DNA of 64,000 nucleotides from a virus. Taxonomy: Duplodnaviria; Heunggongvirae; Uroviricota; Caudoviricetes. The position numbers and the translations under genes are program-made. The notes beneath the pieces were generated by a model that saw only the letters and a list, made by a program, of their open reading frames with translations, had not been told where the DNA came from and searched no databases. The stretch is from the IMG/VR virus record IMGVR_UViG_3300022747_000014; one strand, 5' to 3'. Positions 1,201-48,375 of this stretch are shown here, one piece after another (the first letter of the stretch is position 1; every line of letters starts with the position of its first letter).

Positions 1201-1228
1201 TCTTTCCGTCTCCTAGTCAGAATTAAAT

Positions 1229-1672: not shown

Positions 1673-2022
1673 ATCTGTGTAATAATACACACATGTTAAG
1701 AAATTAACAAACGTTCTTTAAAAATTTGTTTTGATGTAAAGTAAGCAGGCGTACCACGCTAATAGGTTGCGTGACTCTTGCTGAAAATCCGGTCCAGATA
1801 GAAAGCTGGGCACTCTTGTGTAGTTTGTAAGAGACTACAGTGGCGTCTAACACCTATGAGTTAGAAACGATCTATTCCACGTAGCAATACGCAGGAAGAA
1901 GGATTGCAATAGAGTAGAGTAACACTCAACTGGTTGCATGAGGGTCAACTAAAAGACGCAAGTCTTACCCGTAGCCTTGTAAGCAGGCGAAAGAGGCATC
2001 AAAACAAATTTCCAAGTAACTG

Positions 2023-2051
2023 TTGACAGCAAATGAAAAGTTTGCTACAAT
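2023..2051 (+). promoter_or_regulatory. sigma70-type promoter (TTGACA-17 nt-TACAAT)
   Basis: Perfect -35 TTGACA (2023-2028), 17-nt spacer, -10 TACAAT (2046-2051). Sits inside the ORF-free region and faces the downstream structured sequence. Confidence 0.6.
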
Positions 2052-2929: not shown

Positions 2930-3001
2930 GTTGATATAGTTCATTGGTAGAACATCTGTCTCTTAAACAGAATGCGGTGGGTTCGATTCTCACTATCATT
3001 A
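2930..3001 (+). tRNA. tRNA-Lys (anticodon CTT)
   Basis: Acceptor GTTGATA/TATCATT (one U-U mismatch at 2:71), D-arm GTTC-ATTGGTA-GAAC, anticodon stem TCTGT/ACAGA, loop CTCTTAA, T-arm GTGGG-TTCGATT-CTCAC. CCA not encoded. Confidence 0.5.
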
Positions 3002-3075
3002 AAACGCAAAGACTGACTCGGTCATATGTGAAAAGCATCTAATACTAGACACGCAAGTGAATCTAGTCAGACGTA

Positions 3076-3279
3076 ACTCGCAAGGTGAAATCTGTTTATG
3101 CAGGAAGTTTCGTAGTTCGCAAGACTTAATGGCTCGCAAGGTCAACGGGATAGAAAGCATAGAATAGCATGTGACGACAAGCCTACTGCCTGGCTTTAAA
3201 AACGGCGATGCTGACAGCAGACTAGATTACATAGCAATATGGATTTAGTGGAAGTCGGAAGAAAGCAGACTCGCAAGGT
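3076..3279 (+). repeat. three copies of the motif (A/G)CTCGCAAGGT, plus a nearby GCAA-capped hairpin
   Basis: actcgcaaggt 3076-3086, gctcgcaaggt 3132-3142, actcgcaaggt 3269-3279. Hairpin ACTAGA-CAC-GCAA-GTG-AA-TCTAGT at 3045-3066. Confidence 0.5.
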
Positions 3280-3547
3280 TTGTAATAATGTCCGAGGTGT
3301 TGTTGGGAGAGATGTATTCTCAGTCCTCCACTTATATGCAAACACATTGTATTCAGTTAGACTCTGATAGCACTTGGGACGCTGGGTGCATAGCCAGCAG
3401 TGTGTTTACATATAAGTTTTTTGAGTAGTGACGCCTTTAGCGAGGGAGCCTAGTGTAGTACGGATTGTTCTTCGGTGCTATACGACACGGTCACGCTGTT
3501 GAAGAGTAAGAGAACATGAGCGACAGCCCACTACTCAAAGAATTTAT

Positions 3548-3623
3548 GCACGGTTGGCAGAGCGATTATGCGCTGGATTGCAAACCCGGTATGAGGTAGG
3601 TTTGACTCCTACACCGTGCTCCA
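3548..3623 (+). tRNA. tRNA-Cys (anticodon GCA), CCA encoded
   Basis: Acceptor GCACGGT/ACCGTGC, anticodon loop TTGCAAA, T-arm GTAGG-TTTGACT-CCTAC, discriminator T, CCA. Aligns position by position with E. coli tRNA-Cys from memory, including its unusual D-arm (GCGATTATGCGCTGG vs GCGGTTATGTAGCGG). Confidence 0.7.
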
Positions 3624-3960
3624 ATTTTGAGAACCTGTAGCTTGCTGCCCTGAGTAGCAAGTAACCGAAAGGGTAAGACAGAGTGACGAGATCTACGTCA
3701 ACAGGAAGCTCATTTTAGTTTTGCTAGTTTCTTAAAACTAGCTGTGGCGTGTGGAGATGAGAGATTGCACATTCAATAAGCCCTTGAAAAGCTATATTGA
3801 AATACAATCGTGATCCAGTGCTCCGAGATGAATTTGCATTAAATTGCTTGTTTGTTGATGCTCGGCGATATTGGTATCCTCTGCTTGTTGTATTTTGCTT
3901 TAGAAAACAGTTGCCTTGAAAATCAACTAGATCTAATGTACTTTGCACATTGTCCCGCAA

Positions 3961-3990
3961 TTGACTTGCCATACGTTGCACCCCTATTAA
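3961..3990 (+). promoter_or_regulatory. putative sigma70-like promoter upstream of ORF 4015
   Basis: TTGACT (3961-3966), 18 nt, TATTAA (3985-3990). RBS AAAGGAA 4001-4007. Confidence 0.35.
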
Positions 3991-4014
3991 AATCAAACAG
4001 AAAGGAACTCGATT

Positions 4015-4581
4015 ATGAAATTTACACTTCGCAAAGCAAACGCCCTACAAAACACAATCCAGGAACACATCAAGACGATCGACATCGCACTGACAGTTTC
4101 CCTTAACGAGTTCCAAAGTACCACTTCGGTGATGAACACAGCACGTGAAACTCTGGTCCGCAACGATGCCAAGCGCACACAGTTGACCAAGGCCCTGTAT
4201 GGCATCCGTGCAAAGGTTGGTCGTGCCAACGTTGAAGCTGGTGTTGCAGATCTGCTTACAGACGCTGCATTCATTGACAAGCGTTTGGGCTTTTTGAAAA
4301 GCCTAACTGAGAGCAAGGTTGTTGAAGACACAGCAGTGCTTGAAGGCAAGCTAGAGAAGCTTCGCACACAGGACAAAAATAGCCGCTTATACGGTTACAA
4401 CGACACAGTTGACACTGGCGTGCTTGAAGCAGGTCAGATTGAAGGTTACAAAGCAGAAATGCGTGACCTGAAGAAACAGAAACAAAGCATCAACGACAAG
4501 GTGTTGGAACTTAACGTTCGCACTGAGATTGAGTTGGATGCAGATACCGTTTCTTTGCTACAGGCAGAGCAACTGGTATAA
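4015..4581 (+). CDS. hypothetical protein (predicted coiled-coil)
   Basis: 188-aa ORF with RBS. Followed 8 nt later by a tRNA cluster. Confidence 0.6.
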   Translation: MKFTLRKANALQNTIQEHIKTIDIALTVSLNEFQSTTSVMNTARETLVRNDAKRTQLTKALYGIRAKVGRANVEAGVADLLTDAAFIDKRLGFLKSLTESKVVEDTAVLEGKLEKLRTQDKNSRLYGYNDTVDTGVLEAGQIEGYKAEMRDLKKQKQSINDKVLELNVRTEIELDADTVSLLQAEQLV

Positions 4582-4588
4582 ATATCGA

Positions 4589-4667
4589 AGCAGGGTAGAG
4601 GAGTTCGGACGTCCTCGCCAGTCTCATAAGCTGGAGATCGCAGGTTCAAATCCTGCCCTTGCAACCA
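4589..4667 (+). tRNA. tRNA-Met/Ile2 (anticodon CAT), CCA encoded
   Basis: Acceptor AGCAGGG/CCTTGCA with A1:A72 mismatch, D-arm GAGG...CCTC, anticodon stem CCAGT/GCTGG, loop CTCATAA, T-arm GCAGG-TTCAAAT-CCTGC, A73, CCA. No three G-C pairs at the base of the anticodon stem, so elongator rather than initiator type. Confidence 0.6.
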
Positions 4668-4673
4668 AACAGT

Positions 4674-4748
4674 GCCTTGTTAGCTCAGGGGTAGAGCGTC
4701 TCGTTTACACCGAGAGGGTCGGCAGTTCGAAACTGTCACAAGGTACCA
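4674..4748 (+). tRNA. tRNA-Val (anticodon TAC), CCA encoded
   Basis: Acceptor GCCTTGT/ACAAGGT, D-arm GCTC-AGGGGTA-GAGC, anticodon stem TCTCG/CGAGA, loop TTTACAC, T-arm GGCAG-TTCGAAA-CTGTC, A73, CCA. Confidence 0.7.
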
Positions 4749-4753
4749 AATAT

Positions 4754-4827
4754 GCGGGATTAGTTTAGTGGTAAAACGCCATCCTTCCAAGTTGAAGTTG
4801 CGAGTTCGATTCTCGCATCCCGCTCCA
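4754..4827 (+). tRNA. tRNA, probably Gly (anticodon TCC); anticodon arm irregular
   Basis: Acceptor GCGGGAT/ATCCCGC perfect, D-arm GTTT-AGTGGTA-AAAC, T-arm GCGAG-TTCGATT-CTCGC, T73, CCA. Anticodon region CCATCCTTCCAAGTTGA gives only a weak 5-bp stem, or a 4-bp stem CTTC/GAAG with a 6-nt loop. Confidence 0.5.
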
Positions 4828-7883: not shown

Positions 7884-8843
7884 ATGAAAAAATCGCACAC
7901 TATTCGCTGGGTGTTATACCACGAACCTATCCATTTGTTTATTCGTACAGCAAAAGCATTTTCTGAAGAAATTGAAAAATTAACAGATGGACGTATTAAC
8001 GTAGAAGTTTACACTCTAGAAGAATATGCCCAAAAGTTTAAAAATGGTGTAGTGTTTGAACCTATTGCATTAATCAACTCAGGTGAAATTGACATGAGCC
8101 AGATGCAAACTGGCATCATTGGGGTATGGAATGCACCGGATTTCTTTGCACTAGACATGCCTTATTTGTTTAAGGACCACGATCATGCGACTCGTGTATT
8201 AGATGGCGAAATTGGTCGTAAGATGCTTGATTCGTTGCAAGATGTTAGCCCAGTTCAGGGTCTAGCATTTACATACAGCGGTGGCTTCCGAGTGTTAGCA
8301 ACAGACCGTCCAGTAAATACAACAGAAGACTTAGAAGGTTTAAAGTTAATTACTACAGCTAATCCTGTTATGGTAGAAACTGCTAAAAAGTTAGGTTGTG
8401 AGCCGTTGCCATATATGATTAGAGATTTGCATTCAAAAGGCAAAGAATTGGTTTCTATCCAAGGACATAGTGTAGAAACAACTTTACCACGTTATGAGTA
8501 CGAAGCAGATACAACAGTTCAAACTCACATCGCTGATACAAAACACAGCATGTACTTGACTAGCATACTAATTTCTAAAGATTTATGGAATCAATTTGAC
8601 AGCGAAGATCAAGAACTAATCCGCCAGGCAGCTCGTTCGGCCGCAGTTCAAGAGCGTCAATGGAGTGTTGATGAAGCAGATGAGTATGCTGTGAATACCA
8701 AACGACACGAAGAACTTGGAATCACTTACACTAAATTTAGCGACGAAGAGTTAGACAAAATGCGCTCTGTGGTTACTCCACTCTACGACCACTACAGTCA
8801 ATTCTTTAGCGCAGGTTTGATTGACGGTATCGTTAAGTCTTAA
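7884..8843 (+). CDS. hypothetical protein; paralog of 253-1200 (solute-binding-like?)
   Basis: 319 aa. Strong paralogy to ORF 253-1200 across the N-terminal 150 aa. Confidence 0.7.
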   Translation: MKKSHTIRWVLYHEPIHLFIRTAKAFSEEIEKLTDGRINVEVYTLEEYAQKFKNGVVFEPIALINSGEIDMSQMQTGIIGVWNAPDFFALDMPYLFKDHDHATRVLDGEIGRKMLDSLQDVSPVQGLAFTYSGGFRVLATDRPVNTTEDLEGLKLITTANPVMVETAKKLGCEPLPYMIRDLHSKGKELVSIQGHSVETTLPRYEYEADTTVQTHIADTKHSMYLTSILISKDLWNQFDSEDQELIRQAARSAAVQERQWSVDEADEYAVNTKRHEELGITYTKFSDEELDKMRSVVTPLYDHYSQFFSAGLIDGIVKS

Positions 8844-8861: not shown

Positions 8862-9497
8862 ATGGAAAATATAGTATTTTCCTTCTATCAAGATAAAAAA
8901 ATACAACAAATAACATGCCGGGACCTGCTTAGAAATAAGAGAGTCCTGGTTTGTTCTATAACTAGACCGTTTGATAGAATTGCTACTCAATACTCAGAGT
9001 ACCTAGCAACCAAGTTGGCATTTTATGCAAATTCTGGAATTGATGCTGTATACTTTGTAAACTCCACACACGGTTTATATTATCTATCTGTCTATCCTAT
9101 TAGAGTAGATGGAAGCAAAATTGATTTATTAGTAGATCCATCTAAGACCTGGGTTGCTTATGCAAAGCAATTGTTCAGTAAATCACAAGACGTTGACTTT
9201 CTATCAAAGTTTTGGAATTACCAAGTTTTGTTTAACAACGGAGAAATTGAACACTTTACTGAATCTAGTCTAGATGATCCTTTGAGAGAAGCTACTAAAT
9301 TTATTAATCCCAAAGAAATCAAATGGGTTGCGAAAGAATATATTACCGAAGATCCGAAGTTAGTAGTGTGGCGACCCAGTTTACTAATGACTTCACAAAA
9401 GCAGATACCGGTATTTCAGGCTATCTATTATCAGAATGTTTGGCCCAACCCTAAATTAGACAAATATCTAGTTGACACTAATACCGCTATCAAGTAA
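8862..9497 (+). CDS. hypothetical protein
   Basis: 211-aa ORF. Confidence 0.5.
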   Translation: MENIVFSFYQDKKIQQITCRDLLRNKRVLVCSITRPFDRIATQYSEYLATKLAFYANSGIDAVYFVNSTHGLYYLSVYPIRVDGSKIDLLVDPSKTWVAYAKQLFSKSQDVDFLSKFWNYQVLFNNGEIEHFTESSLDDPLREATKFINPKEIKWVAKEYITEDPKLVVWRPSLLMTSQKQIPVFQAIYYQNVWPNPKLDKYLVDTNTAIK

Positions 9498-10022: not shown

Positions 10023-10964
10023 TTACCAGATAAAGTGATTGGCATAGTATTCTACTATTGCCTTTAACTCGTGATCGAAACTAGCCTTGGGTGTCCATCC
10101 CAGGGCTTTTATTTTGTCATCATTGATTGCATAACGAACGTCTTGTCCCTGGCGTTTAATGCTGGGATCAAGATAAAGATCATGTTGAAGATCTGTGCTG
10201 CCTGTGTAGTAGTCAATGATCTTTTTTGCAACTACAATATTCTGTTCTTCGTAGTTGCCGGATATGTTGTAAATCTCGTTAGTAACACCTGCATCAATTA
10301 TGGCAATAACAGCAGAGGCGGTATCGCTAGCATGTAGCCAAGTTCTGCGAGGTAGACCTTGGTCATGCAACGGAATAGGTCTACCTAGACTCAGTGCCTT
10401 GATACTGTTAGGAATAAACTTTTCTGTATATTGGCCTATGCCGTAATTGTTGGTTGGGCGCACAATTACGTATGGCACATTGTAAGTACGTGCCCATGCG
10501 GTAACTAACATATCAGCTGCTGCTTTAGTGGCACTATAAGGGTTGCTGGGCTTTAGCATGTCGGTTTCATAATGTGCACCTTCGACAATATCACCGTAGA
10601 CTTCGTCTGTACTAAAGTGTAGCAATACAGGTTTACGCTTGCGGTCTTTAACCAACTCTAGTAGACGATGTACGCCGTTGATGTTGCTCTTTAAGAACAC
10701 ATCGCTGGATAATATGCTGTTGTCAACGTGACTCTCGGCAGCAGTATTGATAATATAATCGGCCTCGTATAGGTGATCTATGTCATTGATATCAGTCTCT
10801 TCGAATGTAAAGTTTGGCCACTTACGTAGTTCGTCGAGATCGCCATTGGCAGCATAGGTAATTTTATCTACGCCGCGAACAAACCAACCGCGTTCAAGAC
10901 AGGCCTTGGTTACATAATAGCCAATAAAGCCCAGACAACCAGTTACATATACAACTTTCTTCAT
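10023..10964 (-). CDS. NAD-dependent epimerase/dehydratase (dTDP-glucose 4,6-dehydratase RmlB-like)
   Basis: N-terminal Rossmann motif VTGCLGFIGYYV, catalytic YSATKAAAD (YxxxK), 313 aa. Confidence 0.75.
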   Translation of the reverse strand: MKKVVYVTGCLGFIGYYVTKACLERGWFVRGVDKITYAANGDLDELRKWPNFTFEETDINDIDHLYEADYIINTAAESHVDNSILSSDVFLKSNINGVHRLLELVKDRKRKPVLLHFSTDEVYGDIVEGAHYETDMLKPSNPYSATKAAADMLVTAWARTYNVPYVIVRPTNNYGIGQYTEKFIPNSIKALSLGRPIPLHDQGLPRRTWLHASDTASAVIAIIDAGVTNEIYNISGNYEEQNIVVAKKIIDYYTGSTDLQHDLYLDPSIKRQGQDVRYAINDDKIKALGWTPKASFDHELKAIVEYYANHFIW

Positions 10965-11482
10965 AACGATCTCCGTAGATTTAAATAGGCCGGAGTTGTG
11001 CTATACAAGAACTTTGCAAAGTCTTGTTCTAGCGAAGCAAGGTCAGTGGGTTTGTACAAATCAATATTAGACAACGACTTTAATACAACCTCGTCATCAT
11101 CTGCCCAATGGCTAATACCATCATGTGAGTAGTCTCGGTCTCTACCGGACCCAAGTAACTTAATTGGGATAGATTCCCAGTGTGCATAATTACGTAACAT
11201 TTCAAACGGTCTATATAACAAGAAACTGCTCATTGAGTAGCAAACAGGAATTAACCCTTCGTTGGCCATTCCAATGGCAACACCTATCATTAGATGTTCT
11301 GCTGCACCTACGTTGTAAAATCGATCAGGGTGTGCAGCACGTATAGGGTCTAGTACGCCGAACCCTAGGTCCGCAGTGATTACTCTAATGCGACTATCCT
11401 TATTCATTTCAGCTAGCAACAGGCCAGCACATTCACGACGCATATTTGATAATCTCCTGGTAGTTCTCTTCTTTAAGAACAT
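10961..11482 (-). CDS. transketolase-like protein, C-terminal (pyrimidine-binding) subunit, miniature
   Basis: Similar to the transketolase Pyr domain (HLMIGVAIGMANEGLIPV...GSGRDRDYSHDGISHWADDD). Likely true start at internal MRRECAG. Confidence 0.6.
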   Translation of the reverse strand: MFLKKRTTRRLSNMRRECAGLLLAEMNKDSRIRVITADLGFGVLDPIRAAHPDRFYNVGAAEHLMIGVAIGMANEGLIPVCYSMSSFLLYRPFEMLRNYAHWESIPIKLLGSGRDRDYSHDGISHWADDDEVVLKSLSNIDLYKPTDLASLEQDFAKFLYSTTPAYLNLRRSL

Positions 11483-12056
11483 AGTAATGTGTTAACAACT
11501 CAGAAGCAAAGGACCAACGCAGTGGATCGCTGACTCTGATGTTTATTCGGGGCATAAATGTAACTAGTCTGGATACCAGTCTAGGAATATCGACCATGTC
11601 ATATGCACCCATACCGTTGATGTTTATATAGACTTCTAAATTATCCACCGGATTATCGTTGATGAATCTCAAAGATTCCCATATGCTACCTTCAGCAGCT
11701 TCACCGTCACTGATCATGCAGTATACTTTCTTGTTGGGAGTTGCCAATGCATGTCCGACTGCAATGGGCAAACCTGATCCTAGGCTACCAGTTGAACAGT
11801 AAAGTTTATTTTCTAAGTCACGCCCTGGGTGTATGCCGTGTTTGTGTAACAGGGCAACTGGGTCAATGCCGTAATATTTTTCAAGTACAACATACAAGGC
11901 CAGCCCTGCATGCCCGTTGCTAAGAATAAAGACTTCGTCGTCTTTCTTTTGTTCGTAAATTTCTTCAATGATGGGCAATGCACTCAGTGTGCTGCTAAGG
12001 TGACTTAGTTTTTCTTGATAGGTAATATCAATAAGTCTACGAGCAGTTGTAATCAT
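11433..12056 (-). CDS. transketolase-like protein, N-terminal (ThDP-binding) subunit, miniature
   Basis: SNGHAGLALY, SLGSGLPIAVGHA and a GDG-like SDGEAAEGSIWE ThDP-binding motif. Overlaps the C-terminal subunit gene. Confidence 0.6.
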   Translation of the reverse strand: MITTARRLIDITYQEKLSHLSSTLSALPIIEEIYEQKKDDEVFILSNGHAGLALYVVLEKYYGIDPVALLHKHGIHPGRDLENKLYCSTGSLGSGLPIAVGHALATPNKKVYCMISDGEAAEGSIWESLRFINDNPVDNLEVYININGMGAYDMVDIPRLVSRLVTFMPRINIRVSDPLRWSFASELLTHYYVLKEENYQEIIKYAS

Positions 12057-12637
12057 AGTTTTTCGAGCTTAACTGCTCTTCCGATTCCGTTTTCAATAAC
12101 GTATTCACTATTCCATCTTGTACGTTCTGCATGTTTAAACATAAACTCGTGGTAAGCTCTACGTACACCAATGTGCTCCATGTCGTCAAACAATATTACA
12201 CCTTCGTTACCTTCTAGTAACTTGATTGCAAGATCGCCATCGACTGCAACATCTTCGTAATGGTGACTGCCGTCGATGATGATCAATCGAATATTCATGT
12301 CCTTGACCATCTCTTCACTGCATACTTCTAAGAATTCTTTACTAGTTGTTTCAAAGTGCACAATGTTAGTTAAACCCTGTGTGTTGGCCGCAAAGTTTTC
12401 CTTCTGTGTCATCATCTTATCGCCGGTAGTTTGGTAACTAGATCCAACGGTGTACCCGTCTTCAATGAATGGATCAATTGAGTAGACTATGCGATCCGGA
12501 AATGCCCGTGCAAGTCTAGCAGTACCTGCTCCATTAAATGCTCCAATTTCTAAGATGTTGCCGGCCAGGTTAGATAAAATAGATTCGGCAAGTGAATATA
12601 TGTGTCCACTCAGCACTTTTGCTTGATCATTCTGCAT
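12053..12637 (-). CDS. class I SAM-dependent methyltransferase (sugar O-methyltransferase-like)
   Basis: ILEIGAFNGAGT (motif I), IIIDGSHHYEDV. Confidence 0.55.
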   Translation of the reverse strand: MQNDQAKVLSGHIYSLAESILSNLAGNILEIGAFNGAGTARLARAFPDRIVYSIDPFIEDGYTVGSSYQTTGDKMMTQKENFAANTQGLTNIVHFETTSKEFLEVCSEEMVKDMNIRLIIIDGSHHYEDVAVDGDLAIKLLEGNEGVILFDDMEHIGVRRAYHEFMFKHAERTRWNSEYVIENGIGRAVKLEKL

Positions 12638-13454
12638 TTCTTAATTTTCCAATCATGTCTTTGATTCCCATTTCAATGGAGTATTCAGTTTTAAATCCGT
12701 ATTGTTGTTTGGCATAGTTAGTATCACATACCCATACCTTGCTTTCAAATGGTTTGCTAAACTCGTCTATGTATGTTACAGGAGCGGTGTTTATTCCGGA
12801 TACATGTTTCCAAGCATCTAGCACAGCTAGATTGCTATGTTGAACCCCGCTGCCAAAGTTAACAATCTCTCCCACTGGCCATGCGCGGTTTAATACCAGT
12901 TCTATGCCACGAACAAAGTCTTCGATATAGATAAAGTCATGGTACCCATCGTGTAATATCATTGCTTCTTTATGATAAAACGCTCTATATAGTTTTTGGA
13001 ATAGTCTATGTGGACGTTCGTATTGTCCAAACCCGCTGTAGATACGTGCCACTAGAGTTTGTAATCCAAACTGTCTAGCATATCCTTGACACATCAATGT
13101 AGCAGCACCCTTGGTTGCTTGATAAACATCCATTGGGTTAATAGGATCAGTTTCTGCACTGGCTCTAGGCATGGGCCCGTACTCTGCACTGGAACCCAGT
13201 TGTATTAGTCTAGTTTTTGGGTTTCGTTTGAGCCATTCTAAGATAGCTTCTACTAGATCTATGTTTGTACGATACATTTTATTTGCATCGTAGATTTCTC
13301 CTGCACAATTGATGATCAAATCGGGCTTGGATACTTCTAACATAATAAAGATATCAGTACCACGCACGTATTCAATTACTTCGTGCGTGGGTTCAAAGTG
13401 TTCTTTGAGACTGCGTCCAATGAATCCACTGGTGCCTGTAATAAAGATTTTCAT
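12627..13454 (-). CDS. NAD-dependent epimerase/dehydratase (NDP-sugar reductase/epimerase)
   Basis: ITGTSGFIGRSL Rossmann motif, YQATKGAAT (YxxxK). Start trimmed to internal MKIFITG (ATGA overlap with the upstream gene). The ORF track extends it to 13547. Confidence 0.65.
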   Translation of the reverse strand: MKIFITGTSGFIGRSLKEHFEPTHEVIEYVRGTDIFIMLEVSKPDLIINCAGEIYDANKMYRTNIDLVEAILEWLKRNPKTRLIQLGSSAEYGPMPRASAETDPINPMDVYQATKGAATLMCQGYARQFGLQTLVARIYSGFGQYERPHRLFQKLYRAFYHKEAMILHDGYHDFIYIEDFVRGIELVLNRAWPVGEIVNFGSGVQHSNLAVLDAWKHVSGINTAPVTYIDEFSKPFESKVWVCDTNYAKQQYGFKTEYSIEMGIKDMIGKLRNAE

Positions 13455-14092
13455 TTTACTATTTGAGTTAACATTTTTTCGGCCTGTGCCATACGTACCG
13501 GCTTGTGCAGTCCCGGCCAATGTACGATCCAGTCTCCGCTTTGCCATTCGCCACTATGTCCTAGTACGTCGGTGCGTACATCACAATAGTCGTATGGTTC
13601 TTGAACATAACTGTTCATGTAACGCTGCGGCACAATCTTGACTATGTCAAGATAATCATCAATGGTATCAATGATGACCTGCTGTTCTGCCCAGTTAGAC
13701 TCGGCATACTCTTGCTCACGATCAATGATCATTTGCAAATAGTCACGGCCCTGTTGGCTATTACGTACTAAGAAATTGCCTGCGTTGATGTTTAGTCGAT
13801 CGACAGGTACGATTACGTGGTAATCGTTGTCAATCTTGTCTTCTATTTTGATAGTATGGTTAGTGATAGTGGCATCGCACTCACTGAACAAACACCATTC
13901 TATGTCTGGATGTGTGTTAAACAGGTCCAACACATAATGAATCTTGTTAAAACCCATGATTGGGCTATACTTGGTGTCCTTAAGGACAAAGAACTCATAT
14001 CCGTAACGTGTGCAATATTCCTTTTTGGGTGCATCTGTTAGGTCAGCAAGGTCTTGATAGTTATCGGTATTGATGCTGGCTACAGCGTACAT
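13451..14092 (-). CDS. hypothetical protein, possible nucleotide-sugar glycosyltransferase
   Basis: Start trimmed to MYAVASIN (the track ORF reaches 14290 with a junk-like basic N-terminus). Family unresolved. Confidence 0.45.
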   Translation of the reverse strand: MYAVASINTDNYQDLADLTDAPKKEYCTRYGYEFFVLKDTKYSPIMGFNKIHYVLDLFNTHPDIEWCLFSECDATITNHTIKIEDKIDNDYHVIVPVDRLNINAGNFLVRNSQQGRDYLQMIIDREQEYAESNWAEQQVIIDTIDDYLDIVKIVPQRYMNSYVQEPYDYCDVRTDVLGHSGEWQSGDWIVHWPGLHKPVRMAQAEKMLTQIVK

Positions 14093-14132
14093 TGGAATCC
14101 TTGAAAATTTAATTTTACAATATTTATTGGGT

Positions 14133-14762
14133 TTATACAACTTGAAGTTTCTTCTTTTGCCAAAGCAATTTTCGAGCCTCAGACATTTTCTTTTTTGTTT
14201 CCTCAGACAATACTCTTCCTTTGAGAGAGTTAGATAGTTTGTCTTTTTGTTCCTGCGGCATCGGGCCTTTTGTCTTCCCTTTTTGTGCATCAGACAACTT
14301 TTTTCTTGTTTCTACAGACACTTCTCGACCTACTAGGTCAGGCCTCTTTCTCCCTATTTGCCAATCAGCCATTTTCTTTCTAGTTTCATTAGATGGGATT
14401 TTGCCCTTGTGTGCATCAGACATTTTCTTCCTTGTTTCATCACTGTGGGTTTTTCCTGTCATGCCAATGGTTTTTCCGCCGTTGCCTTCTTCGGATTTTA
14501 AATTGGCCCAACTAGTATCATAAACTACATTCCATAATTTACTAAAGTGTTTGCCCCAATATTTTACTTCTTCTTTAGTTTGACATTCTTTTAAAATTTC
14601 AGTAGTATAGTTGTATCCGTGTTTGTCTAAATGTTTGAGCCAATAGGTTCCTGACCCTGGGTATTTGTGTGGATCTTTTTTAGACGTTTGCCCTAGATAT
14701 TGAAGCCCGGTATTCTTGTGTGTCTTTTTGTACAAATAAATAGTCACTATACTGCCTTTCAA
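14133..14762 (-). CDS. GIY-YIG homing endonuclease (Seg/I-TevI-like) with NUMOD3 DNA-binding repeats
   Basis: N-terminal TIYLY...(10 aa)...YLGQT matches GIY-(x10)-YIG. C-terminal half has four tandem ETRKKMS(D/E)A(H/Q)KGK NUMOD3-like motifs. Confidence 0.7.
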   Translation of the reverse strand: MKGSIVTIYLYKKTHKNTGLQYLGQTSKKDPHKYPGSGTYWLKHLDKHGYNYTTEILKECQTKEEVKYWGKHFSKLWNVVYDTSWANLKSEEGNGGKTIGMTGKTHSDETRKKMSDAHKGKIPSNETRKKMADWQIGRKRPDLVGREVSVETRKKLSDAQKGKTKGPMPQEQKDKLSNSLKGRVLSEETKKKMSEARKLLWQKKKLQVV

Positions 14763-14774
14763 TTACATTTATTT

Positions 14775-15641
14775 ATGACTAAAATCTACGACTGCTTTAC
14801 CTTTTATAACGAACTTGACTTACTTGAACTTAGACTAGAAACACTGTACGATCATGTTGATCACTTTGTGCTAGTTGAAGCCGACACAACCTATACCAGC
14901 AGACCTAAACCATTTTATTTTGAGGACAACCGTGCCCGTTACAGCAAATGGGCAGACAAAATCATACATGTTAAAGCCACTATGCCAAGACATCCTGATG
15001 CATGGGTCAATGATAGATACCAAAGAGATCAAATATATGTAGGTATAGAACATGTCGATGCCAATGACTTGATCCTAGTGTCGGATCTAGACGAGATTGT
15101 GCGCCCTGCCGCAGTTGACTACATGCGAAACAGTGAACAAACAGTGTTTGCCTTGCGTATGAGCTTGCACAACTTTAAACTAAATTACATGAAGGTCAAT
15201 CCAGATCGCTATGCTATATGGGGCATGGCTGCACGTAGATCTGTGTTTGATGACATTAAACCAGATGCATTTAGACAGTTGCGATTTCAGTTTATGGATT
15301 CTCCCTATCAGTTTAGTAATGCAGGATGCCAAGTAGTCGAACACGGCGGTTGGCATTTTGGTTACATGGGAGACAAAGATTGGTTACTAGACAAAGCACA
15401 GAGTTTTGCACATACTGAGGTTAACAATCCTGAATTCCTATCTCAAATTGATCCAGATGCCAGTATTGCAAAAAGAACAAGCTGGCAGCAAAACAGCAGC
15501 GATAAATATGAAATAGTAGAACTTGACTCTTATTTCCCCGAGCCAGTTTTACGACACCAAGATCGATATCAAAAATATATTTTGGATAATGCAACAGCCA
15601 AAGCACTTGATTTGTTGCCTGCATATCCTTATAATGTGTAA
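14775..15641 (+). CDS. glycosyltransferase, GT17-like (beta-1,4-GlcNAc-transferase-like fold)
   Basis: N-terminal DCFTFYNELDLLELRLETL...DHFVLVEA matches the Glyco_transf_17 signature. Start trimmed to MTKIYD at 14775. Confidence 0.55.
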   Translation: MTKIYDCFTFYNELDLLELRLETLYDHVDHFVLVEADTTYTSRPKPFYFEDNRARYSKWADKIIHVKATMPRHPDAWVNDRYQRDQIYVGIEHVDANDLILVSDLDEIVRPAAVDYMRNSEQTVFALRMSLHNFKLNYMKVNPDRYAIWGMAARRSVFDDIKPDAFRQLRFQFMDSPYQFSNAGCQVVEHGGWHFGYMGDKDWLLDKAQSFAHTEVNNPEFLSQIDPDASIAKRTSWQQNSSDKYEIVELDSYFPEPVLRHQDRYQKYILDNATAKALDLLPAYPYNV

Positions 15642-15656
15642 TCTATTAGGAAATCA

Positions 15657-16697
15657 ATGACAAAAACCGTTTTAATTACCGGCGGGGCCGGTTTCATCGC
15701 GCATCATGCGATTGATAAAATTTTACGTGACACTGATTGGAACATTGTATGTCTAGATCGTCTAGACATCTCGGGTAACTTAAACAGACTGCATGACATG
15801 TTGCAAGATCACGACACTGCAACTGTTTCTAGCCGTTTACGTATTGTGTTTCATGATCTCAAGGCCGAACTTAACGAAATGATTGTTAAGCAGATTGGCC
15901 CAATTGACATTGTGTTGCACTTGGCTGCTGGCTCGCACGTAGATCGCAGCATCCAATATCCCATGGAGTTTGTACAAGACAACGTAGTTGGTACCGTTAA
16001 TCTATTAGACTATGCCCGTAAGCATTTGCCTAATTTGGAACGCTTTGTTTATTTCTCAACAGATGAAATATTCGGAGTAGCACCAATTGGTGTTAGCTAT
16101 AAAGAATACGATCGCTACAACAGCACAAACCCTTATTCGGCAAGTAAAGCAGCAGCAGAAGAGTTCTGCGTAGCCTACGAGAATACTTACAAAATGCCTA
16201 TCGTTGTTACACACACTATGAATGTGTTTGGCGAGCGTCAGCATCCGGAGAAGTTTATCCCAATGGTAATTCAACGTGCTCGTGATGGAGAGAAAGTCTA
16301 CATTCATGCCAACCCAGAGAAAACCGAAGCTGGTACACGTATGTACATTCACGCCAAGGACGTAGCAGATGGGCTAATGTTTATTCTGCAAAACGTGCCA
16401 CGTGATTACAAGCACCAAGGCGACTATGGTTCAGCACATTGTCCAAAGTTTAATCTTGTGGGCACTGAAGAAATTGATAACCTAACCCTTGCTGAGATGA
16501 TTGCCGCAGCGCAAGGTAAAGAACTCAACTACGAAATGGTTGATTTCCATGGCAGTCGTCCTGGGCATGACTTGCGTTACGCACTAGATGGCGGCCTACT
16601 TAAAGAGCTTGGTTGGGAACCTAAGATTAAACTCAGCGAACGTATTGCTGACATGACAAAATGGACATTGGAGAACGACAGATGGCTTTGCAAGTAA
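15657..16697 (+). CDS. NAD-dependent epimerase/dehydratase (dTDP-glucose 4,6-dehydratase family)
   Basis: ITGGAGFIAHH Rossmann motif, YSASKAAAEEF. Confidence 0.75.
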   Translation: MTKTVLITGGAGFIAHHAIDKILRDTDWNIVCLDRLDISGNLNRLHDMLQDHDTATVSSRLRIVFHDLKAELNEMIVKQIGPIDIVLHLAAGSHVDRSIQYPMEFVQDNVVGTVNLLDYARKHLPNLERFVYFSTDEIFGVAPIGVSYKEYDRYNSTNPYSASKAAAEEFCVAYENTYKMPIVVTHTMNVFGERQHPEKFIPMVIQRARDGEKVYIHANPEKTEAGTRMYIHAKDVADGLMFILQNVPRDYKHQGDYGSAHCPKFNLVGTEEIDNLTLAEMIAAAQGKELNYEMVDFHGSRPGHDLRYALDGGLLKELGWEPKIKLSERIADMTKWTLENDRWLCK

Positions 16698-17407
16698 AAC
16701 ATGCATTTATTGTAACCAGTGCTATCAACAGCAAGTTTGGTGTATTTAACCCCGCACAACGATTAGAACAAACGCTAGGCACCATCTGGAGTATCAAAGA
16801 ACGTATTCCTGATGCCAAGATCATTGTAATGGAAGTGTGTGGCACTCCGGTAACTGAAGAACAAGAACAATTACTGCGTTCTAACTCTGATATCTTTATT
16901 GATTGCAGCAGAGAAGATGATGTGCAAGCACTGTACGACAATGACAATTGGGATGTGGTAAAGAACGGTACCGAAATTATGTGTTTCGGCCGTGTGTTGT
17001 CCATTCTACAAGAAGAAAAATTACTAGACGGAGTTGATCGTGTGCACAAGGTATCAGGTCGATATATATTAAACAACAAGTTTGATGCTGAACTCTATGA
17101 GCGTGAAGAATTAGCAGACCGTATCATCATTGGTCCAAAGCACAAGAGTCAGTTTCCTATAGAAATAACCACAGTTCCATTACAATACATGGCACGTCTA
17201 TGGTCTTGGCCTGCCAACATTACTGATCAAGTTGTAAAAGTATACTTAGACAGCTTTAACTTCTTTGCAGAACGTTTAAGCCAAGGTGGTTACGTGGACA
17301 TTGAGCATGTACTGTATAAGTTTTTACCAACAGAATTAATACACGAAGAATCGGAATTGGGCATAGAAGGCGCAATTGCCCCCAATGGTGCACCAGTAAA
17401 GAACTAA
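16661..17407 (+). CDS. hypothetical protein in the sugar cluster (alternative start 16682)
   Basis: 248-aa ORF co-directional with and tightly packed against its neighbours. Confidence 0.5.
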   Translation: MDIGERQMALQVKHAFIVTSAINSKFGVFNPAQRLEQTLGTIWSIKERIPDAKIIVMEVCGTPVTEEQEQLLRSNSDIFIDCSREDDVQALYDNDNWDVVKNGTEIMCFGRVLSILQEEKLLDGVDRVHKVSGRYILNNKFDAELYEREELADRIIIGPKHKSQFPIEITTVPLQYMARLWSWPANITDQVVKVYLDSFNFFAERLSQGGYVDIEHVLYKFLPTELIHEESELGIEGAIAPNGAPVKN

Positions 17408-18630
17408 TGAGTAACTGTAAACCTATTACCAGTTGTTTGGCCTGCGGCAGTCTGGATCTAGTACTGACATTAGACCTACAAGATCAGCCGTTAGCCAACA
17501 GTTTTAAACCTACTAAGGACATTGCCAGCGAAGATTTTTATCCATTGGCAGTTAACCGATGCACACATTGTGATCACTTGCAGCTGACTCATGCAGTTGA
17601 TCCTGCACTTATCTACACTCATTACCTGTATGTCAGTGGTACCAGTGGTACTTACTTAGAGTATATGGATTGGTATGCAAAATTTGTTACAGAACAATTC
17701 TTAATACAGCCCGCTACAGTGTTAGACATTGGGTGCAATGATGGTAGTCAATTGAATGCATTTAAAAAGTTAGGCATCGAGACCTACGGTGTGGATCCTG
17801 CAGAGAACTTGTATCCCAAGTCTAGTGCAAATCACTCAGTGGTATGTGGATTCTGGACCAGAGAAACTGCTGCACAGTTGCCAAAGTTCGATATCATTAC
17901 TACACAGAATGCCTTTGCTCACATTCCTGAACCGCTGACATACTTAAATGTGGCCCGCGAGCATCTTGCTACTGATGGCAAGATTTTTATCAGCACAAGT
18001 CAAGCAGACATGGTTGTCAATGGAGAGTTTGACACAATCTATCACGAACACATCAGCTATTACAATGCAGCAAGTATGCAGGCACTTGCACGCCGAGCTG
18101 GTCTATACCTAGTAGACGTAGTTAAGACTCCTATTCACGGAACTAGCTATATCTTTGTACTGTCTAAGAACCCTGAAAATCAAAATCGCATTGAAAACAT
18201 CCTGGCCATGGAGTCGAATCTTCACAAGACCGACACTTACAGTACATGGGTAACGGATGTAAAACAATTGTTGATTGATCTAAAAATACAATTGGATCAA
18301 GCACGTGAGCAAGGTTACACTATTGTTGGATATGGTGCTGCTGCCAAGGGCATGACATTGATCAATGCCAGTGATATACGCTTGGATTGTGTAATAGATG
18401 ACAATCCGTTAAAGCAGGGGCTATATTGTCCAGGCACAGAGATTCCAGTTGTTGGTATTGAATGGTTAGATCAAGTTACTGATCCGGCTGAACTTATTTT
18501 GTTTGTGCCCTTGGCTTGGAATTTTTACGAAGAAATCAAACGTAAGATCAAATCTAAGCGTGATAACTTGGGTGATGTGTTTGTACGCTACTTTCCTAGA
18601 ATCATGTACGAACGCGGAGATGCCAAATGA
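17407..18630 (+). CDS. NDP-hexose C-methyltransferase (TylC3-like): Zn-ribbon + class I MTase + C-terminal domain
   Basis: N-terminal CLACGS...CTHCDHL zinc-binding domain, then VLDIGCNDGSQ SAM motif, then a long C-terminal domain, as in sugar 3-C-methyltransferases. Confidence 0.65.
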   Translation: MSNCKPITSCLACGSLDLVLTLDLQDQPLANSFKPTKDIASEDFYPLAVNRCTHCDHLQLTHAVDPALIYTHYLYVSGTSGTYLEYMDWYAKFVTEQFLIQPATVLDIGCNDGSQLNAFKKLGIETYGVDPAENLYPKSSANHSVVCGFWTRETAAQLPKFDIITTQNAFAHIPEPLTYLNVAREHLATDGKIFISTSQADMVVNGEFDTIYHEHISYYNAASMQALARRAGLYLVDVVKTPIHGTSYIFVLSKNPENQNRIENILAMESNLHKTDTYSTWVTDVKQLLIDLKIQLDQAREQGYTIVGYGAAAKGMTLINASDIRLDCVIDDNPLKQGLYCPGTEIPVVGIEWLDQVTDPAELILFVPLAWNFYEEIKRKIKSKRDNLGDVFVRYFPRIMYERGDAK

Positions 18631-19496
18631 AGTTAGAAACACCTATTAACATATTAGTCCGTAGACGTGCTGCCATTGGCGATGTTATAATGAGCACAGG
18701 GGTAGTTAGAGGACTTAAAGAGCTCTACGGAGACAACTGTAACATTGACGTTGCAACCGAATGTATTGAGATTTATCGCAACAATCCGCACATTAGACAT
18801 ATTTGCCATACCAACGTCATGCCCGATGTTGGCGCATACGACAAGTATATCAATCTAGATGATGCATACGAATTAAATCCAACTGAATACTATTTGGACA
18901 GCTATGCATACCGTGCATTTGGCCATGTTGATGTGGATATGCGTCCTGAGTTGTTTGAAAACCAAGCTGACCGAGATGCAGTAGATGCAGATTTGCAAAC
19001 CATTGGTGATAAATTTATCACTGTACATATGCGTAATTGGCATTGGGGTGCAAAAAATATCAGCATGGATGTTTGGTTAGAGGTATTTACTAAGTTGTTG
19101 GAAAATCGTGCAGACTTTAAGATTGTTTGTGTTGGTGGCCCAACAGACTTCTACATTGAAGACCATCCGCTGTTTGTTGACCTTCGTGGTCTATACAACA
19201 GTCAACAGTTAAAGTACCTTATGGATCATGCTGCATGTTTTGTTGGCATTGACAGTGGCCCCTTCCATTGTGCAGCAGCAAGCAAAACGCACATAGTAGC
19301 ACTGTTGACACATCTGCACCCTAATCGTATTGTGCCAATGGGTCAGAGCTATATACAAACAAATGAAGATTGCCGCGGATGCAATGATGATCAAGTGCGC
19401 CCTATTAGGCAACTGGTTTGCAAAAAAGGCAATTACCCATGTGTCAGCAACTTTGATACTGATGCTATTACTAGAGAAATATTAAAAACACTATGA
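18627..19496 (+). CDS. glycosyltransferase family 9-like (heptosyltransferase-like)
   Basis: N-terminal ILVRRRAAIGDVIMSTGVVRGLKE and C-terminal GIDSGPFHCAAA resemble the GT9 signatures (LGDVL / GNDSGPMHLAAA). Confidence 0.55.
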   Translation: MKLETPINILVRRRAAIGDVIMSTGVVRGLKELYGDNCNIDVATECIEIYRNNPHIRHICHTNVMPDVGAYDKYINLDDAYELNPTEYYLDSYAYRAFGHVDVDMRPELFENQADRDAVDADLQTIGDKFITVHMRNWHWGAKNISMDVWLEVFTKLLENRADFKIVCVGGPTDFYIEDHPLFVDLRGLYNSQQLKYLMDHAACFVGIDSGPFHCAAASKTHIVALLTHLHPNRIVPMGQSYIQTNEDCRGCNDDQVRPIRQLVCKKGNYPCVSNFDTDAITREILKTL

Positions 19497-20212
19497 GAAA
19501 CTGGTTTGAATTTTTTACCCACATTAAACAAAAAGGCTTTAATCCGCCCACAATAGTTGATGTAGGAGTTGCAACTGATACAGAAGAACTCTACACACAT
19601 TTTCCAAGCGCCAAGTACTTGTTTGTGGAACCATTGGCAGAGTTTGAACCTAGCCTACAAAGATTGTGTCAATTGTATCCGGGCAGCACTTACATGTTAG
19701 CGGCAGCAGGAGCAACAGACGGAGAACTAGAGATTCGAGTAACACCGGACCTTGGCGGCACCAGTAGATTTGAAACTATTGAAAGCACAGAAGGTGCATA
19801 TGATATGAAGCCACGTACCGTTCCTCAGTTTGCACTAGCAACAATGTGGAACGCATTAGAGTTAACGGGCCCTGCCTTACTTAAAGTGGATGTTCAGGGC
19901 GGAGAACTAGAAGTACTTGCCGGCGCAGAAAGTATTTTAGAAAACTTTGAAGTTATTGTACTTGAAGTTGGTATGATTGAGCAGTACATTGGACAGCCTG
20001 TGTTTCACAACTATGTTGAATACATGGCCAAAAGAAACTACGTAGTCTATGATATCATTCACACAGGCTATGCAGACACTGGCCTATTGGCACAGATTGA
20101 TTTGGTCTTTGTTAAAAAGGACGGTCAGTTCAGACAAGATCAACGTGCAATGACAGACTATACAAAGAAGCACGACAACTACAAAGGAATACAACGCAAT
20201 GACAACATATAA
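19493..20212 (+). CDS. FkbM-family methyltransferase-like
   Basis: IVDVGVATDTE... and overall size and shape consistent with the Methyltransf_21 (FkbM) domain. Moderate. Confidence 0.45.
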   Translation: MRNWFEFFTHIKQKGFNPPTIVDVGVATDTEELYTHFPSAKYLFVEPLAEFEPSLQRLCQLYPGSTYMLAAAGATDGELEIRVTPDLGGTSRFETIESTEGAYDMKPRTVPQFALATMWNALELTGPALLKVDVQGGELEVLAGAESILENFEVIVLEVGMIEQYIGQPVFHNYVEYMAKRNYVVYDIIHTGYADTGLLAQIDLVFVKKDGQFRQDQRAMTDYTKKHDNYKGIQRNDNI

Positions 20213-20960
20213 GCACTCTGGTACGCTTGGCGATTTAATTTATGGCCTAAGCATTGTAAAGAAAATGGGTCCAGGTCGCTTTATGGTTGCTATCAACAAT
20301 ATTGAAAACTGTGTAGCACAGTACGGTTATCGTCCAGATGAGGTTGATCCTGCACACAGAGGACGTTTTACTACACAGGACTTTGAATGGCTTGCTCCGT
20401 TACTGGAACGCCAAAGTTACATTACTGATACGTGCACATGGCATCAAGGTGATGCTGAACCCGATGTTGACCTGGATCGCTTTCGTGGCACCTTGTTCCG
20501 TGGGTTTGAGGGCAACTATGTACAGGCATACCATTTGGCATTCGGGCTACCTTTTACCATGCCCGACTATGACGCTACCTGGTTAGAAGCAGATCCAGTA
20601 AAAACTACTCCAATGGTAGTGAGTCGTACATTTAGATATCGTGATCCTGCTGCTGATGCAACGTGGAAGCAGATGGCAGTAGATGGCAAATTAGATGAGC
20701 TAGGTACTTTTGTGGGTACACTGGCCGAACATGAAGATTTTGTGCGAGTAACAGGTGTGCCAATTCGGTTCTTCCCAGTTAAGAACTTTTTAGAGTTGGC
20801 CAACGTTGTTGCTGGTGCAGAACTAGTCCTGGCTAATCAAAACTTTGTTTATAGTTTAGCAATGGGATTAGGTAAGCAGAGTATTTTAGAAACTATTAAG
20901 ATCAAACCCTTACAGAACAATGAGTGTTTCTTTCCGAGAACTAATTGTCAGTATTTCTAA
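20199..20960 (+). CDS. hypothetical protein (last gene of the sugar cluster)
   Basis: 253-aa ORF overlapping the upstream gene by 14 nt. Confidence 0.5.
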   Translation: MTTYKHSGTLGDLIYGLSIVKKMGPGRFMVAINNIENCVAQYGYRPDEVDPAHRGRFTTQDFEWLAPLLERQSYITDTCTWHQGDAEPDVDLDRFRGTLFRGFEGNYVQAYHLAFGLPFTMPDYDATWLEADPVKTTPMVVSRTFRYRDPAADATWKQMAVDGKLDELGTFVGTLAEHEDFVRVTGVPIRFFPVKNFLELANVVAGAELVLANQNFVYSLAMGLGKQSILETIKIKPLQNNECFFPRTNCQYF

Positions 20961-21017: not shown

Positions 21018-21036
21018 TTAACTAAAGGAGTTTATG

Positions 21037-21324
21037 ATGAAACTTACACCGCTACTTGATAGGGTGGTAGTCCGCCGTGTAGACGCTGATACCGTGACAA
21101 AGGGTGGCATCGTTATCCCAGACACAGCCGCGGAAAAAGCTGACCAAGGTACAGTCCTGGCAGTGGGTCCTGGCAAATATAATGCAGCAGGTGAACTTGT
21201 GGCATTAGGCGTTGCTGAGAACGATCGCGTTTTATTTGGCAAACTATCTGGTCAAACAGTTAAGATTGACGGAGAAGAGCTTTTAATTTTAAAAGAGGAA
21301 GATATCCTCGCTGTAATCAAATAA
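21037..21324 (+). CDS. groES: co-chaperonin GroES
   Basis: 95 aa, [15 protein letters not shown]...GGIVIP. Unmistakable GroES. RBS AAAGGAG 21024-21030. Confidence 0.9.
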
Positions 21325-22950
<1,626 letters not shown>

Positions 22951-45942: not shown

Positions 45943-45951
45943 GGATAAACA

Positions 45952-48374: not shown

Positions 48375-48375
48375 T

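Follow-up and report, generated by a model that had tools for sequence, protein, structure and literature searches.

What does a large freshwater phage make with an extensive set of sugar enzymes of its own, and on what acceptor is the product placed? This question is raised by positions 10023-20960 of a Caudoviricetes virus (IMG/VR record IMGVR_UViG_3300022747_000014), of which a 64,000-nucleotide stretch was analyzed and is referred to here as the window. Open reading frame (ORF) listing and profile searches demonstrated that this region, the sugar island, consists of two divergent operons with 13 sugar genes and one inserted homing endonuclease, 14 genes in total. The best reading of the island is a cytoplasmic pathway in which soluble enzymes would build rare methylated, probably carbon-branched, sugars into an oligosaccharide, with a miniature split transketolase (TK) predicted to perform the key step. 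Virus-encoded glycosylation is already known; what is distinctive here is the conserved, uncharacterized mini split-TK cassette.

Phage origin and gene content of the island

It is highly probable that this sugar-tailoring and glycosyltransfer island is intrinsic to the phage. Its G + C content (0.40-0.43) equals that of the flanks, phage genes lie on both sides, 41 viral loci are syntenic, and bacterial matches are distant; together, these observations support a phage-intrinsic cluster over the recent bacterial insertion that the initial annotation had named as the alternative. The 41 loci, all from IMG/VR, encode the pyrophosphate-binding (PP) half of the TK at 66-83% identity, and 3,764 metagenomic homologues were found on contigs of up to 367 kb. 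P0215, a relative of the 241-aa protein of the island, is named UFOVP190_174 (uncultured Caudovirales phage), with contigs of up to 364,977 bp. When 185,579 species genomes were scanned, matches came from contigs of metagenome-assembled genomes (MAGs) only, at no more than 56% identity. A megablast search with the entire cluster gave no match among GenBank phages, and tblastn of the PP half against GenBank phages returned bacterial-like or contaminant contigs and one weak Campylobacter phage match, nothing else. Elsewhere in the window lie genes for GroES/GroEL, DnaB and further helicases, Mtd_N/collagen fibres, a tail spike with a pectate-lyase fold, and six tRNAs.

The families found, arranged in two divergent operons, bear out the initial proposal of a divergently transcribed cluster for nucleotide-sugar tailoring and glycosyltransfer. 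Every domain assignment in it was reproduced at the same positions, far above chance, by Pfam and NCBIfam profile searches, but the number of genes rises from the proposed eleven to 13 sugar genes plus a NUMOD3 homing endonuclease. The genes, including three short-chain dehydrogenases/reductases (SDR1 to SDR3) and the PP and pyrimidine-binding (Pyr) subunits of the mini-TK, are as follows.

10023-10964, minus strand: SDR1, RmlB-type nucleoside diphosphate (NDP)-hexose 4,6-dehydratase, 313 aa (Pfam GDP_Man_Dehyd, 1.7e-52)
10961-11443, minus strand: predicted mini-TK Pyr subunit, 160 aa, ORF open to 11482 (Transket_pyr, 1.9e-15)
11433-12056, minus strand: predicted mini-TK PP subunit, 207 aa (TPP_enzyme_C, 2.4e-5; Transketolase_N, 5.2e-5; NF004559, 1.8e-20)
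12053-12637, minus strand: class I S-adenosylmethionine (SAM) methyltransferase, Methyltransf_24, 194 aa (PF13578, 9.7e-12)
12627-13454, minus strand: SDR2, reductase/epimerase-type extended SDR, 275 aa, ORF open to 13547 (Epimerase, 1.4e-30)
13451-14092, minus strand: GT34-like (GT-A) glycosyltransferase, 213 aa, ORF open to 14290 (Glyco_transf_34, 1.5e-19)
14133-14762, minus strand: free-standing homing endonuclease with NUMOD3 repeats and a GIY-YIG-like N-terminus (NUMOD3, 5e-18)
14775-15641, plus strand: GT17-like glycosyltransferase, 288 aa (Glyco_transf_17, 3.5e-25)
15657-16697, plus strand: SDR3, second RmlB-type 4,6-dehydratase, 346 aa (GDP_Man_Dehyd, 1.8e-50)
16682-17407, plus strand: predicted GT-A-fold glycosyltransferase without Pfam family, 241 aa (AlphaFold2 and Foldseek)
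17407-18630, plus strand: putative NDP-sugar 3-C-methyltransferase of the TylC3/TcaB9/MtmC type, 407 aa (Methyltransf_13, _23 and _14, up to 8.2e-27)
18627-19496, plus strand: GT9-like (GT-B) glycosyltransferase, 289 aa (Glyco_transf_9, 6.7e-10)
19493-20212, plus strand: FkbM-family methyltransferase, 239 aa (Methyltransf_21, 1.2e-15)
20199-20960, plus strand: predicted second GT9-like (GT-B) glycosyltransferase without Pfam family, 253 aa (AlphaFold2 and Foldseek)

Successive genes within each operon overlap by 1-16 nt and are translationally coupled, and their starts match independent gene calls. Gene calls and homologues point to shorter starts for the TK Pyr half (160 aa), SDR2 (275 aa), GT34 (213 aa) and GT17 (288 aa); the GT34 start at 14092 was set by alignment with loci L001, L003 and L012 together with gene calls, and that of GT17 by alignment. 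The TK Pyr and PP genes overlap by 11 nt instead of 50. A scan for sigma-70 promoters and terminators found no excess over shuffled sequences (34 vs 30.3 and 7 vs 8.7, respectively), and the operon signals claimed here are therefore limited to the gene overlaps and a hairpin 3' of SDR1. The 14 proteins all lack a membrane segment, the highest 19-residue Kyte-Doolittle mean being at most 1.49.

The endonuclease (phrog_314 homing endonuclease, 2.7e-21; TIGR01453, 1.9e-7) is a selfish insertion that stands outside the pathway. Alignment with L001, L003 and L012 showed that its insertion added about 640 bp to a divergent spacer of about 55 bp between GT34 and GT17, and it had no tblastn match in the 41 related viral loci. 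Among the contigs listed with an identical TK allele that reach the insertion site, all carry it.

Enzymes of the island and the proposed pathway

The TK halves scored 72.7 and 50.7 bits against the NCBIfam transketolase model NF004559, for which the cutoff is 488. The PP half stops about 50 residues past the thiamine diphosphate (ThDP) motif, as compared with about 270-320 aa for a full-length PP domain, and Pfam analysis found no match to Transketolase_C in either half. Because of the missed cutoffs, the short PP half and the missing C-terminal domain, the pair is classified from its sequence as transketolase-like, not as a canonical transketolase; its halves total 367 aa, whereas a real transketolase has about 620-660 aa. 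In the PDB, the PP half matched human transketolase (3mos, 2e-12) and a split transketolase (6yak, 5.3e-9), and the Pyr half matched the C-terminal chain of the split transketolase of Carboxydothermus hydrogenoformans (6yaj, 1.5e-17). The order is PP then Pyr on two chains, and the best matches are transketolase and DXS; the TPP_enzyme_C match on the PP half is local, covering about 35 residues over the ThDP motif. The pair had been described at the outset as a split, miniaturized transketolase of 207 + 173 aa, which holds for its type, its splitting and its small size but not for the length of the Pyr half, which is 160 aa.

H19, H49, H73/H76 and the SDGE...NIN ThDP-Mg motif of the PP half are invariant in 11 phage homologues, and the catalytic, cofactor-activating Glu in NVGAAE of the Pyr half is invariant in 36. 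In the 'THxG' motif, another residue takes the place of the phosphate-binding His (GSGRD), a hint that the substrate differs. An Arg aligned with the phosphate-binding Arg of transketolase is retained (MRRE...), and the PP domain is without the segment bearing the second substrate histidine. A search of the full library with a single PP-half protein as query yielded 106 representative clusters (50% identity) at E<=1e-30, nearly all of 195-245 aa. By homology, the mini PP subunits form a distinct family. Homologues P0002-P0120 carry the plain JGI (Joint Genome Institute) label 'transketolase', and a literature search on transketolase in O-antigen clusters or jumbo phages returned nothing relevant.

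Several other assignments were considered for the pair and rejected. A YerE-type enzyme would combine TPP_enzyme_N, M and C domains in one polypeptide of about 560-580 aa, as opposed to the two chains in PP-then-Pyr order found here. The 'yersiniose-type' chemistry of the initial annotation is accordingly a chemical analogy alone, since YerE is acetolactate-synthase-like and belongs to another ThDP superfamily. Phosphonopyruvate and sulfopyruvate decarboxylases have Pyr-then-PP order and acetolactate-synthase-type domains, and no phosphoenolpyruvate mutase is present. A role of the transketolase in heptose supply was rejected because the families for heptose synthesis, GmhA, HldE and GmhB, were not found among the genes of the window that were checked.

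A tblastn matrix and Pfam scans of divergent loci demonstrated a conserved core, GT34-SDR2-[methyltransferase]-TKpp-TKpyr, with SDR2 adjoining the transketolase in nearly every related locus. A dehydratase of the TDE type lies immediately downstream of TKpyr in 24/40 loci and anywhere in the locus in 35/41. The other arm is highly variable between loci: in L034, it contains Gmd, a ManC-like gene and a C-methyltransferase, and in L018, RmlC, an RmlD-like gene, DegT and a second GT34. Locus L025 (4215-15192) has two mini-TK pairs, the first preceded by an SDR and a DegT aminotransferase and the second followed by a cupin, a nucleotidyltransferase-APH-kinase fusion and a class II aldolase-like gene, a gene content that suggests more than one chemistry for the mini-TK cassette. 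In L053 (3876-15717), from a Gammaproteobacteria MAG, DegT-SDR-MT-TKpp-TKpyr (MT, methyltransferase) sits amid FkbM, three GT2 and a DUF2142 membrane protein; the cassette thus lies inside a glycan locus, which ties it to glycan synthesis. Phage locus L018 has its DegT-SDR-MT-TK-TK genes in this order too.

Of the SDRs, SDR1 and SDR3 are, by homology, RmlB-type 4,6-dehydratases. Their best PDB matches are all RmlB enzymes, including dTDP (deoxythymidine diphosphate)-glucose 4,6-dehydratase 2hun for SDR1 (3.1e-65) and 6bi4 for SDR3 (4.3e-46). SDR1 contains the Rossmann motif GCLGFIG together with STDEVYG and YSATK, with the TDE/YxxxK signature kept in 31 homologues, and SDR3 contains GGAGFIA, STDEIFG and YSASK, its signature likewise being kept in homologues. 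Both missed the TIGR01181 equivalog cutoff of 365.1 bits (287.6 for SDR1 and 234.7 for SDR3), and which nucleotide they use (dTDP, UDP or other) is thus not fixed by sequence. SDR2 has GSSAEYG where the dehydratases have TDE, plus YQATK, conserved in 27 homologues, and this replacement indicates a reductase- or epimerase-type enzyme. The trio had been read as one RmlB-like dehydratase and two epimerase/reductases; the SDR families stand, but two of the enzymes carry S-T-D-E/YxxxK and only SDR2 is of the reductase/epimerase type.

The protein at 17407-18630 is assigned as a sugar 3-C-methyltransferase on strong full-length homology to MtmC (4rv9, 5.5e-60, residues 4-380) and TcaB9 (3ndi, 7.4e-45, residues 3-399), and KijD1 (5t6b) also matched. 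It contains PF08421 (Zn ribbon), PF13489 and PF08484, with Cys10, Cys13, Cys52 and Cys55; the full-length PDB matches and the four Cys agree with its earlier description as a TylC3-like C-methyltransferase with a Zn ribbon. The FkbM assignment of 19493-20212 was likewise upheld, TIGR01444 scoring 63.7 bits and exceeding its cutoff of 37.7. For the third enzyme, initially called an O-methyltransferase, the class I SAM fold (Methyltransf_24) was recovered and nothing beyond the fold, which leaves the methylated atom unspecified. A PDB sequence search found no relative of this enzyme and nothing useful for FkbM and GT17. Its slot in the core is occupied by the same family in L012 and L004, by FkbM in L018 and L034, and by Methyltransf_23 in the bacterial L053. 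The occupation of one slot by unrelated families suggests that methylation is functionally tied to the cassette.

Five glycosyltransferases are present in the island, and all are acidic (D+E > K+R). The GT9-like and GT17-like enzymes recognized initially were both confirmed, and three more were added: the GT34-like enzyme, the GT-A-fold protein and the second GT9-like protein. The GT34-like enzyme matched the PDB xyloglucan xylosyltransferase XXT1 (3.8e-4), and the D.DE motif of the GT17-like enzyme is kept in 19 homologues. The two proteins without Pfam family were modeled with AlphaFold2 from alignments of metagenomic homologues, and hhalign found no relation between them and the other families of the island. 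The 241-aa model (16682-17407; predicted local distance difference test, pLDDT, 92.9) has a GT-A fold, and Foldseek matched it in the PDB to the retaining transferases glycogenin, alpha-1,3-GalT and Kre2p (probability 1.0; template modeling, TM, score 0.4-0.55). In BFVD, the closest viral relative was a protein of Synechococcus phage S-SRM01 (TM 0.91), with giant-virus glycosyltransferases also matched. The S-SRM01 homologue belongs to a cluster of glycosyltransferase, sulfotransferase and epimerase genes that has a tail fibre gene a few kb upstream, and in related loci the 241-aa gene comes after SDR3. The 253-aa model (20199-20960; pLDDT 93.1) has a GT-B fold and matched WaaC (2h1h, 6.4e-7), a GT9 protein (3tov, TM 0.62) and TibC in the PDB (Foldseek, probability 1.0). 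As modeled, the two proteins are a GT-A glycosyltransferase and a GT9-like glycosyltransferase, respectively. For the GT9-like protein at 18627-19496, the NCBIfam heptosyltransferase models all scored far below cutoff (TIGR02201, 43.5 vs 170.2 bits).

From these families, a pathway can be proposed. SDR1 and SDR3 would convert a host NDP-hexose (dTDP- or UDP-glucose) to an NDP-4-keto-6-deoxyhexose. In the conserved minus-strand module, the mini-TK (PP + Pyr, ThDP) may then add a two-carbon unit to the keto carbon, which would be the key step, after which SDR2 would reduce a carbonyl, the SAM methyltransferase would methylate the product, and the GT34-like enzyme would transfer the sugar. In the variable plus-strand module, the MtmC/TcaB9-type enzyme is predicted, on strong full-length homology, to C-methylate C3 of the keto-sugar. 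The FkbM enzyme may put on a further methyl group, and the GT17-like, GT-A and two GT9-like transferases would lengthen the oligosaccharide. The sugars made would thus be a C2-branched methylated deoxysugar and a 3-C-methyl deoxysugar (6-deoxyhexose). No 2,3- or 3-dehydratase accompanies the C-methyltransferase, and its substrate is therefore probably a 6-deoxy sugar and not a 2,6-dideoxy sugar (virenose/evalose-type). We give the formation of a C-branched NDP-sugar by the mini-TK about an even chance; the C2-branching step is drawn from genomic context and from the literature proposal for split transketolases. In that proposal, the split-gene transketolases of miharamycin and amipurimycin transfer hydroxyacetyl to keto-sugars; the 13 putative cases are all from Streptomycetes, and none has been characterized in vitro (PMC12247030).

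Genomic surroundings and acceptor of the glycan

Directly downstream of the island, GroES (96 aa) and GroEL (538 aa) are encoded at 21034-22950 (plus strand), an arrangement that is syntenic in L012, L015 and L025. This GroEL shares 68% identity with gammaproteobacterial GroEL and 61% with that of Vibrio jumbo phage 2.275.O. The island is also flanked, at 253-1200, 7884-8843 and 8862-9497 (plus strand), by a pair of DctP/TRAP-type solute-binding paralogues and a redoxin/peroxiredoxin-like gene, which probably serve as auxiliary metabolic genes and give a hint of a proteobacterial host. The region 121-4827 (plus strand) contains six tRNA genes (Arg-TCT, Lys-CTT, Cys-GCA, Met-CAT, Val-TAC and Gly-TCC). 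At 40688-48374 and 61603-63252 (plus strand) lie an array of fibre genes with an Mtd_N-type N-terminus in common and a separate tail spike with a pectate-lyase fold; two fibres have long collagen GXY runs, mostly GIQ/GPQ, and one has a Laminin_G_3 domain. A pirin-like cupin (48340-49047, plus strand) and a radical SAM enzyme (51568-52668, plus strand) directly after the DnaB-type helicase were also noted.

The explanation tentatively favored as a whole, at somewhat less than an even chance, is that structural proteins of the phage (capsid or collagen-like fibres) are glycosylated directly in the cytoplasm before assembly, and the choice of a virion protein as the target is made with the same reserve. 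The island has no flippase, polymerase, ligase or lipid-carrier enzyme and its five transferases are acidic, a combination that favors virion-protein glycosylation, as does the analogy with giant viruses and mycobacteriophages. Several observations weigh against this explanation. The profile and structure searches establish enzyme families, from which we infer the branching step and the target. The island lies about 20 kb from the fibre genes and not beside structural genes, and Thr-rich GXT collagen repeats, as in glycosylated BclA, are not enriched in the fibre proteins. No nucleotidyltransferase was found in the window, which makes the nucleotide carrier a guess, and no dedicated 4-ketoreductase for the 3-C-methyl branch is evident. 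In L025/L027 and L036, the mini-TK cassette occurs without a recognizable 4,6-dehydratase in the sequence examined; SDR2 or the host may therefore supply the keto acceptor, and a route through sugar phosphates is conceivable. Lipopolysaccharide (LPS) core transferases are soluble peripheral enzymes that need no phage membrane partner, so the absence of membrane proteins is also compatible with host LPS as the target.

The closest rival is the LPS core of the host, which sequence does not separate from virion proteins. Here the soluble GT9-like and GT-A enzymes would extend lipid A-core or a lipid-linked glycan at the cytoplasmic face, to be exported by host MsbA or Wzx, and the changed surface might exclude superinfecting phages or prevent the loss of progeny on cell debris. 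The two GT9-like enzymes, which belong to the heptosyltransferase family, suit such a role, and the pectate-lyase fold of the tail spike implies that the phage recognizes a polysaccharide on its host. The GroEL identity and the DctP genes make a Gram-negative host plausible, and the hypervariable arm is reminiscent of O-antigen loci in its diversity. On the other hand, the two GT9-like proteins, at 253-289 aa, are short, the five transferases have a net acidic composition, and the Wzx, Wzy, WaaL, Gtr and acetyltransferase genes of seroconverting phages are missing. Neither an integrase nor any lysogeny gene appeared in the annotated window, and classical seroconversion is inapplicable; the label 'virulent phage' used in the initial annotation is unsupported as phrased. 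To our knowledge, LPS remodeling by a lytic jumbo phage has never been shown. On balance, a host-envelope acceptor appears doubtful, but it deserves serious consideration.

An improbable alternative concerns the substrate: the mini-TK might act on free sugar phosphates, making an unusual ketose or higher-carbon sugar that is then phosphorylated, nucleotide-activated and transferred. The genes beside the two mini-TK pairs of L025 (cupin, nucleotidyltransferase-kinase fusion and class II aldolase-like gene), the retained phosphate-binding Arg and the lack of a 4,6-dehydratase in L025 and L036 are in line with this route. It is opposed by the replaced 'THxG' His, by the loss of the second substrate histidine segment from the PP domain, and by the 4,6-dehydratase that is translationally coupled to the Pyr half in 24/40 loci; moreover, genes for a kinase, an aldolase or a nucleotidyltransferase are missing from the window and from most loci.

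Hypermodification of phage DNA bases, for example as glycosylated 5-hydroxymethylpyrimidines that evade host restriction, is very improbable and the least likely of the three targets put forward initially (host LPS, virion proteins and DNA). Phage DNA glycosyltransferases of GT-A and GT-B folds do exist; they are related to LPS and teichoic-acid enzymes and install hexose, N-acetylhexosamine or heptose, sometimes with epimerases (bioRxiv 10.1101/2023.12.21.572611). Such systems adjoin either a ThyS-like pyrimidine hydroxymethylase or a 5mYOX/TET enzyme plus a C5-methyltransferase. However, no ThyS-like hydroxymethylase or 5mYOX/TET family was found among the window genes checked with Pfam and PHROG, a check with incomplete coverage (many of the small ORFs matched no family) that extended over the 64-kb window, the other ~300 kb of the genome lying outside it. 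The five acidic transferases are unlike DNA-binding transferases, and together with three methyltransferases they far exceed known DNA sugar modifications.

Finally, an ordinary pentose-phosphate auxiliary gene unrelated to its neighbors, or a recent bacterial insertion or mis-assembled host flank, would accord with the JGI label and with the fact that phages carry pentose-phosphate genes, but this explanation is largely refuted by the size, scores and missing C-terminal domain of the TK halves, by the translational coupling of the TK genes between a methyltransferase and a dehydratase, and by the synteny in 41 viral loci, the flank-like G + C content and the distant, MAG-only bacterial matches.

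Significance and comparison with known systems

In its fullest form, the proposal would make the 207 + 160 aa pair the first example of a miniature transketolase-like class that branches NDP-keto-sugars, within an abundant clade of freshwater phages with ~360-kb genomes that would use it, along with dehydratases, methyltransferases and five transferases of their own, to coat their virions with a C-branched, C-methylated glycan. We regard this combination as rather unlikely; if true, it would be a bacterial-virus counterpart to the autonomous glycosylation of giant viruses. Transketolase-type ThDP sugar branching has so far only been proposed, for a few Streptomyces clusters, and a compact, highly conserved phage family in simple operons would be easy to synthesize and assay. 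The mini-TK could also serve as a small biocatalyst for tertiary alcohols. The conserved core and hypervariable arm in abundant huge freshwater phages suggest that diversifying selection acts in phages on glycans of their own making, possibly located on virions or infected cells. In addition, the 'transketolase' label could lead virome surveys to miscount mini-TKs as pentose-phosphate auxiliary metabolic genes.

The seroconversion modules GtrABC, Oac and Iap/Wzy-beta are similar to the island in that a glycan change is phage-encoded. They consist of one to three membrane proteins that act on an existing O-antigen in integrating phages, whereas the island has 13 soluble enzymes for rare sugars made de novo. 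In the glycosylation systems of chloroviruses, mimiviruses and mycobacteriophages (capsid and tail in the last), as in the island, soluble sugar-tailoring enzymes, several glycosyltransferases and sugar methyltransferases are virus-encoded (PMC9614988). Their virion-protein targets have been shown by experiment, while the phage island is known from genes alone. We know of no ThDP branching enzyme or sugar C-methyltransferase in those virus systems.

The C-methyltransferase has the same full-length three domains (Zn ribbon, SAM and C-terminal) as TylC3, TcaB9, MtmC and KijD1. These known members make deoxysugars of actinomycete antibiotics, in contrast to the phage gene, which lies downstream of a 4,6-dehydratase. 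The branching systems YerE/YerF (yersiniose A), AviB1/B2 and KbDH-alpha/beta share with the proposed pathway an NDP-4-keto-deoxyhexose, a ThDP-dependent two-carbon addition giving a tertiary alcohol, and ketoreduction (PMC12247030). YerE is an acetolactate-synthase-like decarboxylase and the AviB type is E1 alpha/beta-like, whereas the phage halves match transketolase and DXS; the likeness would thus be one of function and not of family.

The split transketolases of miharamycin and amipurimycin, compared here by description, share these features with the phage pair: two genes (PP and Pyr), ThDP, a sugar-tailoring cluster, an adjacent oxidoreductase and a predicted two-carbon addition to a sugar ketone (PMC12247030). 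In Streptomyces, they take part in the making of nucleoside antibiotics, whereas the phage pair has relatives in glycan loci of uncultured bacteria and is smaller, with about 207 + 160 aa and no Transketolase_C.

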